Shown: in pieces, positions 2,213-44,263 of the stretch
Layout: every line of letters starts with the position of its first letter
Position numbering within the stretch: position 1 is the stretch's first letter
Origin: a phage
Strand: one strand, 5' to 3'
DNA: 44,263 nucleotides
Assembly: GCA_029038705.1 (NCBI GenBank)
Contig: GCA_029038705.1_4346.1
Made by a program: the position numbers and the translations under genes
Notes under the pieces: model-generated
The model's database searches: none
What the model was told of the DNA's origin: nothing
What the model saw: the letters and a program-made list of their open reading frames with translations, nothing else

Positions 2213-2398
2213 TCAAACTGCTGCAAAGTGAGTCTCACTTCCTGGTAACTTGAAGCCGTTGTCGGTCCGCGCCACGTTCCACTCAATCCCACCGTGGTAC
2301 ACAACCATGTCATCTAAATCCAGGTCTATAACGGTTCCTACTTTGAAGATGCCTTTAGTCAGTTCACTGTCTCTTTTTGTAACTTTAACTTCTAACAT
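2213..2398 (-). CDS. Hypothetical protein
   Basis: 61 aa ORF directly downstream of promoter 2431-2459; GAGGAAAACG precedes the ATG. Confidence 0.5.
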   Translation of the reverse strand: MLEVKVTKRDSELTKGIFKVGTVIDLDLDDMVVYHGGIEWNVARTDNGFKLPGSETHFAAV

Positions 2399-4068: not shown

Positions 4069-4426
4069 GAGAATAGTTACGTTGCCGTTGTGATTCTTCG
4101 GGGAGGGTTGTGCCTTTATTCTTATTACTTGGTAACTAAAGGGCAGGCTTAAGCCTGCCCAATAATCGTTACATTTTTACGGTTGCGAATCTACGGCACA
4201 TTAAGAAACAGTATATATTTCAGCGGGTTACTTCTTTAAATGAGATTTAGATACACTTATCCTTAAACCCCAAGGCAAGCATCTCAGCTGTCTGGGAGGG
4301 GTTGACGAATCCCTCGGGGAGGGTTCGTCAACTCCGTAATATATACAAGTCCCAAAACCATTATACAAACATGTGTCAAGAACTTTCAATAACATTTTTG
4401 TAAAGATTAAATATTACAGAGATTGG

Positions 4427-4486: not shown

Positions 4487-4669
4487 ATGTCGCATTATAT
4501 GACGCAGAATGAAGTAGCTGAACGTATCGGGGTGACACGTCAGACAATTAATAACTGGTTGCGCAGCGGCAAATTCCCTGACTGCTGTATTAAGGTTATG
4601 GGCCGCCGTTTACCGGGAACATTTGACCGTAATAAAGTCGAAGCATGGATTAAGGAGAACGTGAAATGA
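4487..4669 (+). CDS. Small HTH DNA-binding protein (AlpA/MerR-excisionase-like fold)
   Basis: MSHYMTQNEVAERIGVTRQTINNWLRSGKFP is a helix-turn-helix signature. AGGAGA sits 7 nt upstream; the track's longer ORF from 4373 has no RBS. Confidence 0.6.
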   Translation: MSHYMTQNEVAERIGVTRQTINNWLRSGKFPDCCIKVMGRRLPGTFDRNKVEAWIKENVK

Positions 4670-7373: not shown

Positions 7374-7400
7374 GTAAAAAGAAAGGGGCGTTACGCCCCT
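7373..7400 (-). terminator. Terminator between the converging primase-helicase and XRE genes
   Basis: Hairpin AGGGGCG-TTAC-GCCCCT; minus strand is followed by UUCUUUUUACC. Overlaps the XRE stop codon. Confidence 0.5.
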
Positions 7401-7606
7401 TCACCTAGCGCCAGCCACTTGGCGTCTACTTCCAGCACTTCCGCCAGTTTAAACAGCGTTGCCGGGCGTACGTCCTGAGTTACCCCGAGTGCAAGCTGGT
7501 TAATCGCGCCCTGGGAAACGCCGGCCAGAACAGCCAGACGGCGCTGGGAGATACCGAGTTCTTTACGGCGTTGCTCTACACGGATGCCTAGTTCAGATGG
7601 TTGCAT
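7391..7606 (-). CDS. XRE-family (Cro/CI-type) HTH transcriptional regulator
   Basis: 71 aa; ELGISQRRLAVLAGVSQGAINQLALG is the XRE helix-turn-helix pattern. Divergent from the flanking plus-strand genes. Confidence 0.8.
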   Translation of the reverse strand: MQPSELGIRVEQRRKELGISQRRLAVLAGVSQGAINQLALGVTQDVRPATLFKLAEVLEVDAKWLALGEGA

Positions 7607-27072: not shown

Positions 27073-27137
27073 TTGCCTTTATTTAAAGGAATGCACTGTG
27101 GTTAAATAGGACAAATCCTAAACACGAGGAAATAGGC

Positions 27138-33271: not shown

Positions 33272-33332
33272 TGAGGGATCCTCTTAGTAAATGAAAAGAG
33301 GGACCGAAGTCCCTCTCGATTATAGCTTAACC

Positions 33333-34382
33333 TTAAGCACCTACACCAGTTACCAGGAAGGCAATAGGCACATGCTTACGTTCAACCACACGGTTCCAGT
33401 TGGAGGCGTTCGCCAGGTCCTGCCAGGAAGCGGAGCGCGGGGTAGTCTCGGTGCCGTTGCCAGTGATTACTGCGCTGGTGAAGCTGTAGCCCAGTGGGTG
33501 CAGTAACCAGGTCTTACGGGTCCACAAGGTTTCGACACCGCCACCATTGCCGCGGGACTCTTCGCGCTCATATGCCAGCGGATTTTTCGGGTTACCTTCG
33601 CCGTAACCGATAGCGCCGTTGCCGAAGATGATGGAGATAAACTTACGGCTCGGGCCTGTACCAACTACCGTCATGCTGTCATCAACAATCACGCGGTAGC
33701 CCTGGTAGGTGGCGAACAGGGTATCGTTGTCAGCGTTTTTGATGAAGTCAATAAGCTGCTGCTTACGGGCCTGCGCATAAACGAAGCTGTGCATCGCGAT
33801 AGCGCCCAGCACTTCACCGCCGTTGCCCATCAGCGCATCACCCATAGTCTGGGTAGCGTCGATGAACGCGCCCGCGTCGAAGCCTTTAGTAGCGGACACG
33901 TCGATCACCATGTCGTTCTGCTCGTGGTATGCGTCGGTAGCGGCCACGTTGTCATTGTACAGACCGAGCGCGGTGGCAATCAGACGGCGTTGTGCCTGGC
34001 GCTGCCAGAAGTTATCCAGGCGAGAAGCTACTGATTGCAGCGGGTTCTGGCTGGTCAGTTCGACAGTCAGGTCCGCCTGGCCGAAACCTTCGTTCAGGTA
34101 TGCAACGCGCGCCATCATCTCACCGGTCCGCACGTTACGCGGGGTAGCGATATCCTGGTATACGTCGTTCGAGTAGTTTGGCTCGATAGAGGTATCAATC
34201 GCTTTCCAGAAAGGAATATTAGCGATGTTGGACGGGCCGCGGGCAATCTCGGCAGCGTATGGGGTCGGGGTCAGAATACCAGACTGGAAGAACGCGGTTT
34301 TTTCTACCGGGTCCTCGGTCATATAAGACGCCAGGACCGGGATGTTGCCAGTTACGATATCGCCGATAGTAGTAATTGCCAT
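33333..34382 (-). CDS. Major capsid protein
   Basis: 349 aa; position after the scaffold gene; strong RBS. Fold not verified. Confidence 0.7.
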   Translation of the reverse strand: MAITTIGDIVTGNIPVLASYMTEDPVEKTAFFQSGILTPTPYAAEIARGPSNIANIPFWKAIDTSIEPNYSNDVYQDIATPRNVRTGEMMARVAYLNEGFGQADLTVELTSQNPLQSVASRLDNFWQRQAQRRLIATALGLYNDNVAATDAYHEQNDMVIDVSATKGFDAGAFIDATQTMGDALMGNGGEVLGAIAMHSFVYAQARKQQLIDFIKNADNDTLFATYQGYRVIVDDSMTVVGTGPSRKFISIIFGNGAIGYGEGNPKNPLAYEREESRGNGGGVETLWTRKTWLLHPLGYSFTSAVITGNGTETTPRSASWQDLANASNWNRVVERKHVPIAFLVTGVGA

Positions 34383-34384
34383 TA

Positions 34385-35140
34385 TTATTTCCTCAGGGCT
34401 TTAAGTTGCCGTTCAAATTCGGCAGGGTTCGATTTATACAGGGCTAAACGCTCTGCTTCACTCATGTCTTTAAACGCTGGTGCGGCCCCGCCGCCTTTGC
34501 CACCGGAAGCCCCGCCGCCGGAAGCTGCATTTGCTTTAATCAAATGCGAAAACGCTTTGTGTTCACGCAAATATTTACGGAACTGTTCCGGGTCAGTTGT
34601 GATTACATTGCCATCTGCGCCGACAAACTTAGTAACCACATCATCGCCTTCGAACTCAGTCTTAACGAACGGTGCAAGAATGTCTACTGCTTCAGGGGTG
34701 ATAAAGTCGCCCGCGAAAGAGCCTAACACCGCTTTACGTTCGCTGCCGAGGATGCGCTCTGCCATTTTGGAGATGCGACCATCTTTCTCAGCTAACACCG
34801 GGTCATACTGGCTACGAATCGTCTTTTCGAACTCGTCCATCTTACCAGCGGCTTTTAACGCCTCCTGGTGGGCACGCTGCCGTTCTTCTTCGGCCTCTTT
34901 TGCTTTACGAGCGGCTTCTTTCTTCTCCGCCAGCAACGCTTCCTGATTGGCCTTAAGCCCGGCTACTTCTTTCTCAATCAGCGCCTGAACTTCTTCAGCG
35001 GTGAACATTTTTGGCGCGTCACCGCCACCAGCTTTATCTTCTGCCCCAGCTTCTTCCTGGAACGGATAACGTAAAAAACGATTCATAGTCAGTATGTCCC
35101 CTGGACGTTGGAACCCGGGCCACCCGGATTTACATGTCAA
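34385..35140 (-). CDS. Scaffolding protein
   Basis: Coiled-coil, Ala/Glu/Lys-rich (EALLAEKKEAARKAKEAEEERQRAHQEALKAAGK). Real start may be the ATG at about 35086, which has GGGGA upstream. Confidence 0.55.
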   Translation of the reverse strand: MTCKSGWPGFQRPGDILTMNRFLRYPFQEEAGAEDKAGGGDAPKMFTAEEVQALIEKEVAGLKANQEALLAEKKEAARKAKEAEEERQRAHQEALKAAGKMDEFEKTIRSQYDPVLAEKDGRISKMAERILGSERKAVLGSFAGDFITPEAVDILAPFVKTEFEGDDVVTKFVGADGNVITTDPEQFRKYLREHKAFSHLIKANAASGGGASGGKGGGAAPAFKDMSEAERLALYKSNPAEFERQLKALRK

Positions 35141-35168
35141 GAATAAATTATTCCAACATGCAAGGCAA

Positions 35169-35432
35169 CTATTCCAGAATATTCCTCACGTAGTCCTGCA
35201 ACATGAACACTTTCAGCCTCAGTTGCCGTACGCATTCGGCGTTCTGAACGTCGATAGCCAAATCCTCGTCAGCGTCGTTACTTGGCGGAGCCAGTTTGCA
35301 CGGCGGCTGCATCATTGTCGTATCCGGGGATGGAATTAGCGTTTGCGACGGCGCTGGACTTGAGCAGGACGCGAGCATCGTCGAAAGTGCACACGCTGCG
35401 ACCAGGCGTTTTAATGTACTTAACGACTTCAC
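35169..35432 (-). CDS. Outer-membrane spanin (Rz1-like lipoprotein)
   Basis: 87 aa; signal peptide with lipobox LASC (MKSLSTLKRLVAACALSTMLASC), Pro-rich mature part; starts inside the i-spanin gene in another frame and extends past its stop. Confidence 0.7.
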   Translation of the reverse strand: MKSLSTLKRLVAACALSTMLASCSSPAPSQTLIPSPDTTMMQPPCKLAPPSNDADEDLAIDVQNAECVRQLRLKVFMLQDYVRNILE

Positions 35433-35664
35433 GGGTAATTACCTCTGATTTCGTCTTGCCTTCGTTGTCAGCGGCTGCGGCCTTTGATTCGTCCTGCTGC
35501 TGCCGTTGTGTTTTCTTCGCCAACTCAGCCTGTGCTTTCTGCTGTTGCTGAGAAACGAGATTCGCCCGGCCTTCGTTCCAGCCGCTGCGGTACTGGTAGA
35601 TGCCGTGTGCGTAAGCCAGGATGACGAAACATGCTCCTGCTACGACAGTTGCTTTAAGATTCAT
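35278..35664 (-). CDS. Inner-membrane spanin (Rz-like)
   Basis: 128 aa; N-terminal TM helix (ATVVAGACFVILAYA) then Gln/Ala/Lys-rich coiled coil; GGAGA RBS. Confidence 0.7.
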   Translation of the reverse strand: MNLKATVVAGACFVILAYAHGIYQYRSGWNEGRANLVSQQQQKAQAELAKKTQRQQQDESKAAAADNEGKTKSEVITREVVKYIKTPGRSVCTFDDARVLLKSSAVANANSIPGYDNDAAAVQTGSAK

Positions 35665-35915
35665 GTTTCTCCTTTCTCGATAAGTAAAGCCCCGCTTTAA
35701 GGCGGGGCGCTAGTCCTTATCATTTAAACATAGAAACGGCGTAATCTCAGTAAACCCGTTACTTTTTACACGAGCAATAGAGTATGGCCCTTCCGAACGC
35801 GTCAGCGTAACTACACTCATGACTTACGTCCCGCTCCGTTACCTGCCCGCGCCGCGGTCGCTTGTTCATACTTCACAAGCTCAGGTGGAGCTTAGCACAT
35901 TTTTAGTGAAAAGTC

Positions 35916-35931
35916 AACTATTCGAATAGTT
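35916..35931. repeat. Perfect 16 bp palindrome AACTATTCGAATAGTT
   Basis: Read directly. Shares the GAATAGTT half-site with the promoter element; GGAATAA is repeated twice just downstream (about 35954-35969). Confidence 0.6.
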
Positions 35932-35978
35932 TATTCCTACATTTACAATTTGGTGGAATAACTGGAATAATCACAGGC

Positions 35979-36003
35979 ATTAAAAAGCCCCTTTCGGGGC
36001 CTA
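35979..36003 (-). terminator. Rho-independent terminator
   Basis: Hairpin GCCCC-TTTC-GGGGC; minus strand is followed by UUUUUAA. Confidence 0.5.
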
Positions 36004-36006
36004 AGT

Positions 36007-36468
36007 TTATTCTGGCTTAGTGACCTTCGCCGCTTTGCTGACAGCCTCTACACCATCGGCATCAGTAACTTTAACGAAGTATTCCCCAACAGAATTAACC
36101 GTCAGATACAAAGCCTCTTCCGGGGCGTTAACCACTTCCTTCCCGTCTTTGTACCAGGTCAGCGCATATGGTGCTTTGCCCGCCTTAACTTCGACAGCGA
36201 TATTTGCGCTGCCGTCTGCCAGTTCAGCGTCCTGCGGTTGTACGGAGAAATACACATCACCAGCATCCGCCAGGTACTGAATCTCATAAAGCATGCCCGC
36301 CGCCGGTAGCGCAATACCGGTTTTATCTGCAAACGGCATATCGTCTACGGGCGCACCCAGTACACTTTCATCTTCAATAAATACCACGTTCTCGCCGGAG
36401 CCAGGCACACGGGCGTACTGGACTACGCGACGCGACGGTACATCAGTTACTTTGAAAAAGCCCATCAT
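36007..36468 (-). CDS. Ig-like domain protein
   Basis: 153 aa; ALTWYKDGKEV...VGEYFVKVTDADG is an Ig-like pattern. Confidence 0.5.
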   Translation of the reverse strand: MMGFFKVTDVPSRRVVQYARVPGSGENVVFIEDESVLGAPVDDMPFADKTGIALPAAGMLYEIQYLADAGDVYFSVQPQDAELADGSANIAVEVKAGKAPYALTWYKDGKEVVNAPEEALYLTVNSVGEYFVKVTDADGVEAVSKAAKVTKPE

Positions 36469-37544: not shown

Positions 37545-37647
37545 AAAAATAATATCTCAGGGAATTTTTTCTTATTGCGGTGCGATGTCTTGCTGTGGTA
37601 CATGTATATACACAATCTTTATACTAGAAGAAGCGGAGGGTATTTTA

Positions 37648-38997
37648 ATGGGGTCCAGACGTTTAACTGAAGAAGATGTAAACCTGAGACTGGCGTCACG
37701 GGGTATAGTAGTAATTGAGTATGCAGGCCACTCTAAACTTAAGTCTAAATTCCGCTGCCGTAGTGGCCATGTGTGGGAGACAAAGGCCAATACCGTCCTA
37801 AACGGTCATGGTTGCCCCCAATGCTACGCTGCGGAAAAACGGGCGAAAGTAACAGAGTGGCCTAATGGGGTTGAATGCCTTAATTACGCAGGTGCTGTAA
37901 GTGGGAAATCAACGTTCAGATGTAAATGCGGGTTCGTCTGGTCCGCTACCGGCAGCGACATTTTAAGGGGTAAAAGTCATTGCCCGAATTGCAGCACTAA
38001 CAGAAAAAGGCTCGAGATCGGAGAAATAGAGGAAAGGTTACGCGGCACTGGTTTTGAACTGGTGTCTTATTCAGGGGATATCTGCCGTGCGCCATCGACA
38101 CTGAGGTGTCAAAAAGGCCATGAATGGGCCTCTACGCTTGGTAACATTTTTCAGGGTAGAGGGTGCCCGCGGTGCGCGTCGTTCGGGCGTAGTAAAGTGG
38201 AGGATGAAGTCTGTGAATTTCTCGATAGCATGGGGGTGGAATATCATCGGAATGATAGAAGTCTTATCCACCCAAGAGAGATAGATATTTTAATACCGCA
38301 ACATAATCTGGCGATAGAAATAAACGGCCTGTACTGGCACAGTGAAGCTGCCGGGAAGGGGAGAAAGTATCACATGGAGAAAAGAGTCGCCGTTGAGGAA
38401 AGAGGGTTCAGGCTCCTGTCAATAAGGGATGAGCTATGGCTGCATAAAAAAGAAATAATAAAGAAAATAATCGGCCATTCCGTCGGCGTCTCTTCTTTGC
38501 GAGTTTTCGCCCGCAAATGCCATGTAAAAGAGATTAACAAAATATGTGCAGAGCGTTTCCTGGAGGAGAACCACATTCAAGGATTCCGTAACTCGACGAG
38601 GTATATCAGCCTCGTTTATGAAGAAAAGATTGTTGCGGTAATGACGCTGACGTGTAGAAAAGGTGAATGGGAGCTTGTGCGGTACGCTACGTCGTGTTCG
38701 GTGGTAGGCGGGCTGTCGAAGCTATGGGCCTATGCCGTGCGCCGTTATAGCATCACCGACGGTTTTACCTACACTGACCGGGATTTATTTACCGGAGAAT
38801 CATACCTATCAGCGGGGTTTAAAAAGGCTTCTGTGAGATGTGGATTCCGCATCGTCGTAAACAATGCGACTAAAACAGAATCACGGCAAAAATGGAACAA
38901 AGCGCCAGAGGGGCTTACACAGTCGGAATGGTACGCTGCGGAAGGTGTATCCCGCATATGGGATAGCGGACAAGAGAAATTGGTATGGAATAAGTGA
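37648..38997 (+). CDS. Stand-alone nuclease with repeated zinc-ribbon modules and a PD-(D/E)XK-like core (homing-endonuclease-like)
   Basis: Three repeats of a C-x-x-G/C-H...CPxC module (CRSGHVWET..CPQC; CKCGFVWSA..CPNC; CQKGHEWAS..CPRC), then REIDILIP...AIEINGLYWHS. Start is probably the ATG at 37648 (GGAGGG RBS), not 37585. Confidence 0.55.
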   Translation: MGSRRLTEEDVNLRLASRGIVVIEYAGHSKLKSKFRCRSGHVWETKANTVLNGHGCPQCYAAEKRAKVTEWPNGVECLNYAGAVSGKSTFRCKCGFVWSATGSDILRGKSHCPNCSTNRKRLEIGEIEERLRGTGFELVSYSGDICRAPSTLRCQKGHEWASTLGNIFQGRGCPRCASFGRSKVEDEVCEFLDSMGVEYHRNDRSLIHPREIDILIPQHNLAIEINGLYWHSEAAGKGRKYHMEKRVAVEERGFRLLSIRDELWLHKKEIIKKIIGHSVGVSSLRVFARKCHVKEINKICAERFLEENHIQGFRNSTRYISLVYEEKIVAVMTLTCRKGEWELVRYATSCSVVGGLSKLWAYAVRRYSITDGFTYTDRDLFTGESYLSAGFKKASVRCGFRIVVNNATKTESRQKWNKAPEGLTQSEWYAAEGVSRIWDSGQEKLVWNK

Positions 38998-42507: not shown

Positions 42508-42768
42508 TCATTCCCCGCTCTCCTCTCGTGCGATACGTTGCTCAGTTTTAGTGATACCCCGGCGCGTGAATAACACCGGGCTTGTTTTAACGTGCGTCAT
42601 CAGACGGTTGTTATAAATTACGTGGCGCTCGCAGTCCACGTCTTTGCTGTACTTCGCAATCGTCATTTCGTTGATGCCGGTTTGTCGGCACGTCTCGGCC
42701 ATCGTGCCAAATTCTTTAATCAGGTTAGGAATGCTGGTAATCATCCTAAGAAATTCCTCGTTGTCCAC
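42508..42768 (-). CDS. Small HTH-containing protein (candidate regulator or DNA-binding packaging accessory)
   Basis: 86 aa; ETCRQTGINEMTIAKYSK is HTH-like. Confidence 0.4.
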   Translation of the reverse strand: MDNEEFLRMITSIPNLIKEFGTMAETCRQTGINEMTIAKYSKDVDCERHVIYNNRLMTHVKTSPVLFTRRGITKTEQRIAREESGE

Positions 42769-44212: not shown

Positions 44213-44241
44213 AATATAATAGGGTCGAGGATAATAGTCAA
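44213..44241 (-). promoter_or_regulatory. Sigma70-like promoter (TTGACT-N17-TATATT) with two CTATTAT elements
   Basis: Minus strand: TTGACTATTATCCTCGACCCTATTATATT. Confidence 0.5.
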
Positions 44242-44263
44242 CTAGTCATTACAGAAAACAGAT

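Follow-up and report, generated by a model that had tools for sequence, protein, structure and literature searches.

The stretch of DNA analysed here (the window; 44,263 nucleotides, contig GCA_029038705.1_4346.1 of GenBank assembly GCA_029038705.1) is the genome of a phage of the genus Kagunavirus (Guernseyvirinae), and the element in question is a perfect 16-bp palindrome, AACTATTCGAATAGTT, at positions 35916-35931. The 2 kb around it share 98% identity with Escherichia phage vB_VIPECOTH07 and have matches in 234 phage records; all matching records that were retrieved are classified as Kagunavirus or as sister genera of Guernseyvirinae. The palindrome lies within a 342-nt gap (35665-36006), with the gene of a Hoc-like head-decoration protein (36007-36468) on one side and the Rz/Rz1 spanin genes on the other. 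According to the list of open reading frames (ORFs) and the annotation of close relatives, the Rz-like i-spanin is encoded at 35278-35664; the annotation of these relatives also gives the Rz1 o-spanin, embedded in and overlapping Rz, at 35169-35432. The scaffold gene (34385-35089) lies downstream of the spanin genes and is followed by the gene of the major capsid protein (33333-34382). All of these genes, including the Hoc-like one, are encoded by the minus strand. Holin and endolysin have their genes elsewhere in the genome, away from Rz/Rz1, as judged from the annotation of a close relative. An intrinsic terminator (GGCCCCGAAAGGGGC followed by TTTTT, -12.7 kcal/mol, minus strand) follows the Hoc-like gene at 35981-36002, and the terminator scan revealed another one after the capsid gene (33296-33317). 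Since there are terminators before and after the Rz-scaffold-capsid genes, the unit needs its own promoter. From its sequence, Rz-Rz1-scaffold-capsid looks like a transcription unit bounded by terminators.

A predicted promoter of the sigma-70 type, designated P_B-, is found directly at the palindrome (35889-35917, minus strand), with the -35 box TTGACT at 35917-35912, a 17-nt spacer and the -10 box TAAGCT at 35894-35889; transcription is predicted to start at about 35882/35881. Going along the minus strand from the stop codon of the Hoc-like gene, the terminator is followed by TATTCCAGTTATTCC and, after a variable linker, by TGTAAAT; a second variable linker separates this from the block GGAATAAAC-TATTC/GAATAG-TTGACT-(17 nt)-TAAGCT, in which the left arm of the palindrome overlaps the -35 box. 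Relative to the start at 35882, which is itself predicted from the position of the -10 box, the palindrome spans about -49 to -34 and its centre (35923.5) is at about -41.5. P_B- ranked 7th of all window positions with a rough sigma-70 matrix. Its hexamers and their spacing agree with this matrix but do not pass a stricter consensus scan, in which the -10 box matches at 3/6 positions. Strand and position are those expected, after the terminator and before Rz, and the hexamers are steadier than the spacer. The pattern T[TA]G[AC]CT-N16-18-TANNCT has only two sites in the window, P_B- and a second late promoter region, P_A, described below; both are on the minus strand, preceded by GAATAG and located before late genes. 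Independently, PhagePromoter picked the identical sequence as promoter HP1 (TTGACTTTTCACCAAAAATGTGCTAAGCT) in phage fBC-Eco01 (PMC9825357, Table S2). The available portions of that paper contain no description of the palindrome, of the N3 inverted repeat introduced below or of P_A (PMC9825357).

The palindrome was noted in a preliminary description of this DNA, and AACTATTCGAATAGTT is indeed found exactly there and nowhere else in the window, even if three mismatches are allowed. It belongs to neither strand and has an everted, gapless CTATTC/GAATAG core. As the description had it, the palindrome is built from the half-site of the early promoter element in the opposite arrangement: both arms are exact copies of the early GAATAGT. 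A 16-bp palindrome alone is not significant, because two perfect ones are present in the window and 0.68 (independent bases) or 0.61 (Markov model) are expected, and because 49% of simulated sequences contain at least one. The second perfect 16-mer, at 4143, is a terminator-type hairpin. Composition and placement of the palindrome are non-random, and the palindrome itself is real and conserved. The 8-mer GAATAGTT is present in 6 copies (1.37 expected), a number reached in 1 of 100 shuffles. GAATAG has 12 intergenic copies (2.1 expected); intergenic DNA is 8.5% of the window and harbors half of all its GAATAG copies. Only two 60-bp segments, starting at 35141 and 35919, contain five GAATA/TATTC pentamers, and none of 300 simulations reached five. 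All 6 intergenic GGAATA hexamers fall into these two regions. The two GGAATAA copies described downstream of the palindrome are at 35955-35961 and 35964-35970, which is shifted rightward by one base relative to the place implied, and the two further palindromes near the start of the scaffold gene, GAATAAATTATTC (35141-35153) and GAATATTC (35177-35184), are present as described. With respect to AT content, the palindrome area belongs to the top four 80-nt stretches of the genome, of which the remaining three are promoter regions.

A genome-wide scan for the half-sites and their spacing revealed two classes of motif. The early element, AATAG-N4-CTATT, has six exact sites (2430, 4039, 7681, 10777, 14665 and 26693) against 0.02 expected, and 12 matches against 1.09 expected if one mismatch is allowed. 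It occurs in two promoter designs: in TTGACA-N3-GAATAGTTnGCTATTATAGT the repeat is inside the spacer, in TTGCAC-17-TACTAT it is placed over the -10 box. The same element was reported for fBC-Eco01 as the PHIRE motif tgAATAGTa-ccTATTat-T (PMC9825357), where a 'phage RNA polymerase' is held responsible for it; in a close relative of our phage, the annotation lists no gene of such an enzyme. Since an XRE-type helix-turn-helix gene (7391-7606, minus strand) adjoins two of the AATAG-N4-CTATT sites, it is more natural to read them as operators. Judging from this arrangement, the AATAG-N4-CTATT sites seem to serve as operators for the XRE/Cro-like repressor encoded by this adjacent gene, and the published annotation mislabels early operators as promoters of a phage RNA polymerase.

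The late class consists of GAATA-N3-TATTC(C) together with GGAATA hexamers and is confined to the two intergenic regions that flank the spanin genes. GAATA-N3-TATTC occurs exactly twice in the window, at 35141-35153 and 35924-35936, against 0.04 expected. The copy at the palindrome reads GAATA-GTT-TATTCC (35924-35937, no strand, centre at 35930) and is the part conserved across genera. Jerseyvirus phage f18SE has the same split: five N4 sites accompany early promoters, and two N3 sites occupy positions homologous to those of the late sites here. Thus, a second spacing class, as the preliminary description had suspected, does exist; that it reflects a different binding mode of the same regulator is unlikely, since the half-sites of the palindrome are everted and gapless. 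The palindrome does not fit the early operators: CTATTC/GAATAG is everted without a gap rather than inverted with a 4-bp gap, and f18SE has its five N4 operators with neither the palindrome nor AATAG at this place. The inverted repeat at 35924-35936 does fit the late N3 class, in which the arms are kept and the spacer is free (GTT or AAG, depending on the genus); the exception is the lineage of relative L028, which has N4. An early operator with one mismatch, AAAAGTCAACTATT (35909-35922, no strand), covers the -35 box of P_B- and has the left arm of the palindrome as its right arm; it is lacking in Jerseyvirus. GGAATA or GGAATAA as a general late promoter motif was rejected, because outside the two regions both are found only in coding DNA or in ribosome-binding sites. 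Near the end of the window there is a strong promoter-like site, TAGTTGACT-17-TATATT (44213-44241, minus strand), whose -35 context, TAGTTGACT, is common with the promoter at the palindrome. It is overlapped by an early-type operator with one mismatch, AATAGTCAACTAGT, at 44233-44246.

Conservation was compared in about 70 relatives, and variability, defined as the fraction differing from the window, was calculated from 37 unique Kagunavirus sequences. The -10 box of P_B- was invariant (0.000) and the -35 box nearly so (0.005); the values for TTTACA (see below), the palindrome and the N3 inverted repeat were 0.009, 0.010 and 0.012, respectively. The spacer of P_B- had a variability of 0.084, and the linkers at 35937-35941 and 35948-35953 had 0.24 and 0.28. 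The low variability of hexamers, palindrome and repeat compared to that of the linkers indicates that the block is under constraint. The palindrome is found at the same position in nearly all Kagunavirus relatives. In the Jerseyvirus counterpart of the late repeat, GAATAAAGTATTCC, the arms GAATA and TATTCC are kept, all three spacer bases are changed and AATAG is absent. Conserved arms with a free spacer between genera are seen at both late loci, and ATTTACA and GGAATAACTGGAATAAT are also kept in Jerseyvirus. On the basis of these alignments, the conserved unit is the N3 inverted repeat, and the palindrome is a Kagunavirus-specific composite in which this repeat abuts the GAATAG that flanks the -35 box. 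Cornellvirus-type lineages have a different promoter, of the extended -10 type, at the same place; these and the lineages of about 60% identity, with their different promoter, give no further test of the palindrome. In L052 (570-1075), L053 (670-1175) and L090-L095, downstream of the Hoc-like gene, the palindrome region is replaced by the extended -10 promoter TTGACAcgtttttgTATAAT. In the same lineages, the spanin gene is preceded by another leader, of about 290 nt, and repeated CATTAGAATAnCTTATAnT 19-mers are found upstream.

P_A, the second late promoter region, precedes the scaffold gene (35140-35186, minus strand) and consists of GGAATAG, TTGCCT (35168-35163), 17 nt and TATTCT (35145-35140). 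Its core, GAATAG-TTGCCT-17-TATTCT, spans 35174-35140 and ranked 30th in the window. The inverted repeat GAATAAATTATTC (GAATA-N3-TATTC) overlaps the -10 box. The block GGAATAG-TTGCCT-N8-GGAATAATT-TATTCT, with 27 specified bases, is found without a mismatch in 56 IMG/VR contigs of three genera, and P_A is identical in Kagunavirus, Jerseyvirus and Cornellvirus-type genomes. In the latter, a gene on the opposite strand precedes the scaffold gene, and there P_A is likely to be the scaffold promoter. The stop codon of Rz1 is inside the GGAATAG of P_A; GGAATAG is kept in the Cornellvirus-type genomes, which no longer have this overlap.

A leader of about 200 nt with conserved hairpins extends from P_B- to the start codon of Rz (35665-35885, minus strand). 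Comparison of Kagunavirus and Jerseyvirus gave 30 consensus base pairs in the leader, 8 of them with changes on both sides, and pairing that is kept through two-sided changes is consistent with transcription of the minus strand. The hairpin at its 3' end (35689-35708), followed by TTTACTTATC, is terminator-like (-16.1 kcal/mol, z = -3.5, T-rich tail) and came first in the terminator scan; it is located just before the ribosome-binding site of Rz. The T tract is poor and not present in Jerseyvirus. No credible Rfam family was found for 35000-36100 or for three related loci. ORFs in the leader (36 amino acids at 35759-35869, and one from a window-specific ATG at 35821) were rejected since the starts are not conserved, the frames are broken in L005 and in Jerseyvirus, and the insertions and deletions are not multiples of three. 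Apparently, the leader is non-coding, and from its predicted structure it may act in cis as an RNA element within the late transcript.

Back to back with P_B- there is a predicted promoter on the plus strand, P_B+ (35942-35971), with TTTACA, 18 nt and (TG)G-AATAAT. It matches 10/12 consensus positions and has in addition the TG of an extended -10 box; in the matrix ranking it came 17th here and, for Jerseyvirus, 13th. P_B+ includes the direct repeat GGAATAA-CT-GGAATAA (35955-35970), and the centre of the N3 repeat is about 48 bp from each of the two predicted divergent start sites. P_B+ faces the terminator and has nothing to transcribe in this phage. In about 70% of the Kagunavirus relatives the gap is 500-1100 nt long, and the extra DNA always begins directly after CTGGAATA. 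This accessory hot spot (35969-35985; relatives L003-L039 and L056-L088) is filled in about 70% with 250-780 nt of differing plus-strand genes, which encode a methyltransferase, an HNH-like protein, a protein of 173 amino acids annotated as sliding clamp or clamp-like, and small membrane proteins. The cassettes sit between one shared early-type promoter of their own and a terminator. They destroy the -10 box of P_B+ (AATACG, AATAGG and similar); TTTACA and GGAATAACTGGAATA stay conserved. Since these two are kept despite the loss of the -10 box, they would be binding sites or upstream elements of P_B- and not the core of P_B+.

Candidates for a binding protein were sought by scanning 41 window proteins against Pfam and PHROG. 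This revealed three possible DNA-binding proteins: the XRE protein (7391-7606), an excisionase-like HTH_17 protein of 60 amino acids (4487-4669) and a weak NinH-like protein (42508-42768). No Pfam match to a Q-like protein was found among the 41 proteins scanned. From the position of AAAAGTCAACTATT over the -35 box, the XRE protein might touch P_B- there. Among host factors, IHF, Fis, ArgR, Lrp, CRP, sigma-54, sigma-E, OmpR, CpxR, the DnaA box and the UP element gave no convincing fit when the consensuses were compared by eye. The RcsB box TN(G/A)GAN4TC(T/C)NA (PMC7913699) has no match with up to one mismatch in 35100-36000, and genome-wide there are 28 matches against 42 expected; a likeness is seen only in the core AGAATATTCC (35176-35185). 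Exact agreement with the RcsB-box pattern is restricted to two perfect TAGGA-N4-TCCTA palindromes, TAGGAATTATCCTA (1350-1363) and TAGGACAAATCCTA (27107-27120), both intergenic. Two further coding regions should be mentioned. A protein of 61 amino acids (2213-2398, minus strand) matches Pfam Gp54, 'phage antiviral trigger protein' (E = 5e-26). An ORF of 470 codons on the opposite strand (37585-38997, plus) lies between the head-morphogenesis and portal genes; its product combines treble-clef zinc fingers (DUF4379) with a Vsr/REase-like nuclease domain. The ORF is missing from that place in the closest genome and is probably a homing-endonuclease-type insertion.

From the sequences and their pattern of conservation, the promoter-like quality of the site, the terminators and the gene order we infer a transcription start, the binding of a protein and a direction of regulation. 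We propose, with about even confidence, that a regulator acts through the palindrome, a composite site centred at about -41.5 of a late promoter for the spanin, scaffold and capsid genes. Within the gap that separates the spanin genes from the terminator behind the Hoc-like gene, it would form the core of an AT-rich regulatory block that is conserved. One arm, GAATAGTT, runs into the -35 box of P_B-, and the other arm forms GAATA-N3-TATTCC together with GGAATA, which makes the site a composite of two elements, the GAATAG flanking the -35 box (common to P_A) and a late-type inverted repeat. P_B- would restart transcription past the terminator, through the structured leader of about 200 nt into Rz/Rz1, and, helped by P_A with its same design, further into the genes of the scaffold and the major capsid protein, ending at the terminator behind the latter. 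Most likely, a dimeric regulator would contact RNA polymerase from about -41.5, that is, in class-II geometry, and thereby tune the late promoter. The same block may also control the back-to-back promoter on the plus strand.

Several observations weigh against this proposal, and the main alternative is a functional promoter with incidental symmetry. According to this explanation, the GAATAG flanking the -35 box and the inverted repeat came to abut by chance, and their conservation reflects upstream requirements of the promoter and the young age of the genus, not the binding of a dimer. As stated above, about every second genome of this kind should contain a 16-bp palindrome by chance. Compensatory pairs of changes in the two arms were found in none of about 70 Kagunavirus sequences; all seven variants of the palindrome have changes in one arm only. 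The L028/L082 lineage tolerates two changes in the left arm together with N4 spacing of the inverted repeat. In Jerseyvirus the left arm is decayed from CTATTC to CTTTTT, with an A-tract in place, and the -35 box is weaker. The palindrome is restricted to Kagunavirus and is not itself the conserved unit; the idea of the preliminary description of a site for a late-gene factor is still live in view of the separate late class. In Jerseyvirus, P_B- corresponds to a weak TAGATT-17-TACGCT of rank 236, whereas the plus-strand promoter ranks 13th there. P_B- in the window already ranks 7th unaided, that is, it scores high without any activator, and regulation is perhaps not needed. In addition, none of the three candidate proteins can be assigned to the palindrome by computation, and the RNA sequencing of phage K1B4, a relative, gives expression per gene only and no information on start sites (PMC12645636). 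That the symmetry is incidental is nevertheless somewhat doubtful: the region from -36 to -55 is as invariant as the hexamers, with adjacent linkers varying by 24-28%, the same pentamers are clustered non-randomly at two late promoters, and an upstream requirement of the UP-element type would be a poor fit (hand comparison with the consensus of Estrem et al. 1998).

The block could instead serve the plus strand, as operator and core of P_B+, with an accessory slot that is empty here and filled with cassettes in relatives. The quality of P_B+ (10/12 plus TG, ranks 17th and 13th), the conservation of its hexamers across genera with a varying spacer and the plus-strand genes immediately to its right in about 70% of the Kagunavirus relatives are in favor of this explanation. 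However, we consider it improbable, since here and in Jerseyvirus nothing precedes the terminator, which begins about 10 nt past the predicted start of P_B+, and since the cassettes destroy its -10 box and bring their own promoter. TTTACA and GGAATAACTGGAATA are conserved even there and hence not kept as core of P_B+, and the centre of the palindrome would fall at about -54.5 of this promoter. Binding of the regulator of the early operators, probably the XRE protein (7391-7606), to the everted palindrome or to AAAAGTCAACTATT would repress the late promoter in the early phase of infection. Both arms reproduce the early half-site GAATAGT exactly, and the 18-mer TGAAAAGTCAACTATTCG matches 12/16 specified positions of the consensus TGAATAGTnnCCTATTAT, including the flanking TG (hand comparison); moreover, the AATAG-N4-CTATT core at 35909-35922 is only one base off, and the XRE gene is beside two such operators. 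Still, everted half-sites without a gap would not suit a small helix-turn-helix dimer that reads a repeat with a 4-bp gap, Jerseyvirus keeps its N4 operators but has neither GAATAG nor the near-operator in the palindrome region, and P_A has no near-operator of the AATAG-N4-CTATT type, which makes this regulator very unlikely as the one acting here. Finally, the perfect symmetry, the AT-rich surroundings and the neighbouring iteron-like GGAATA repeats are reminiscent of a nucleic acid structure (terminator, cruciform or RNA hairpin), a replication origin or a packaging site. The hairpin is weak (-3.2 and -4.4 kcal/mol, z about -0.9), lacks a U tract and is no better than shuffles, real terminators flank it, and the palindrome is far from the terminase and replication modules and overlaps a promoter-like -35 box; a role of this kind is hardly credible, and the palindrome as terminator or stable hairpin was rejected.

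Apart from its mechanism, the composite site is an ordinary phage regulatory site, and a predicted one: its promoter was already in the supplementary table for fBC-Eco01, and phage promoters with operator-like repeats are a familiar principle. As candidates for therapy and biocontrol, phages of the genera Kagunavirus and Jerseyvirus are being isolated widely, and in the literature found, their gene regulation is covered by software predictions only. Our analysis separates two motif classes, places two late promoters around the spanin genes and locates an accessory hot spot beside the palindrome. The coordinates are useful for 5'-end mapping, for reporter assays and for the safe insertion of payload genes. 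If a dedicated late factor indeed binds, it would be a new regulator for the subfamily Guernseyvirinae.

It is tempting to extend the proposal of a composite regulator site to a late-transcription switch of Guernseyvirinae, in which a protein bound to GAATA-N3-TATTCC/GGAATA arrays between back-to-back promoters would turn on Rz-scaffold-capsid and the structured leader would act in cis on the polymerase. By analogy, the switch may be modelled on p4 of phage phi29 and the leader on put RNA or the 6S leader of lambda, and the protein may be the small excisionase-like HTH_17 protein, the NinH-like protein or a host factor. We regard this extension as rather unlikely as a whole.

Among known systems, the geometry at P_B- resembles that of class-II activators. 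CRP and FNR bind at -41.5, and lambda cI activates PRM from OR2. Here, too, a dyad of about 16 bp is placed at the -35 box, at about -41.5 of the predicted start, and AACTA-N6-TAGTT has the 5-6-5 layout of the CRP core. In contrast, the sequence is unrelated, the start is a predicted one, and the core promoter is not obviously defective. With the Cro/cI-type operators of XRE proteins the palindrome shares the half-site GAATAGT, the overlap with a core promoter and a phage XRE gene beside the early operators; it differs in its everted, gapless arms and in the loss of its left arm in the sister genus, in which the early operators are kept. The p4 switch of phi29 (A2b/A2c and A3), cited here as a lead only, likewise has symmetric sites between back-to-back -35 boxes, one promoter being directed toward late structural and lysis genes and the other in the early direction. 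In the present phage there is no p4 homologue and no sequence similarity, and the divergent promoter has nothing to transcribe. Compared to PR' and Q of lambda, the proteins scanned include no Q-like one, the tail of the leader hairpin is a poor T tract, and holin and endolysin are encoded elsewhere; nevertheless, the order of elements in lambda PR'-6S RNA-tR' is seen again, with a predicted promoter, a leader of about 196 nt and a GC-rich hairpin with a T-rich tail, followed by Rz/Rz1 and the head genes.

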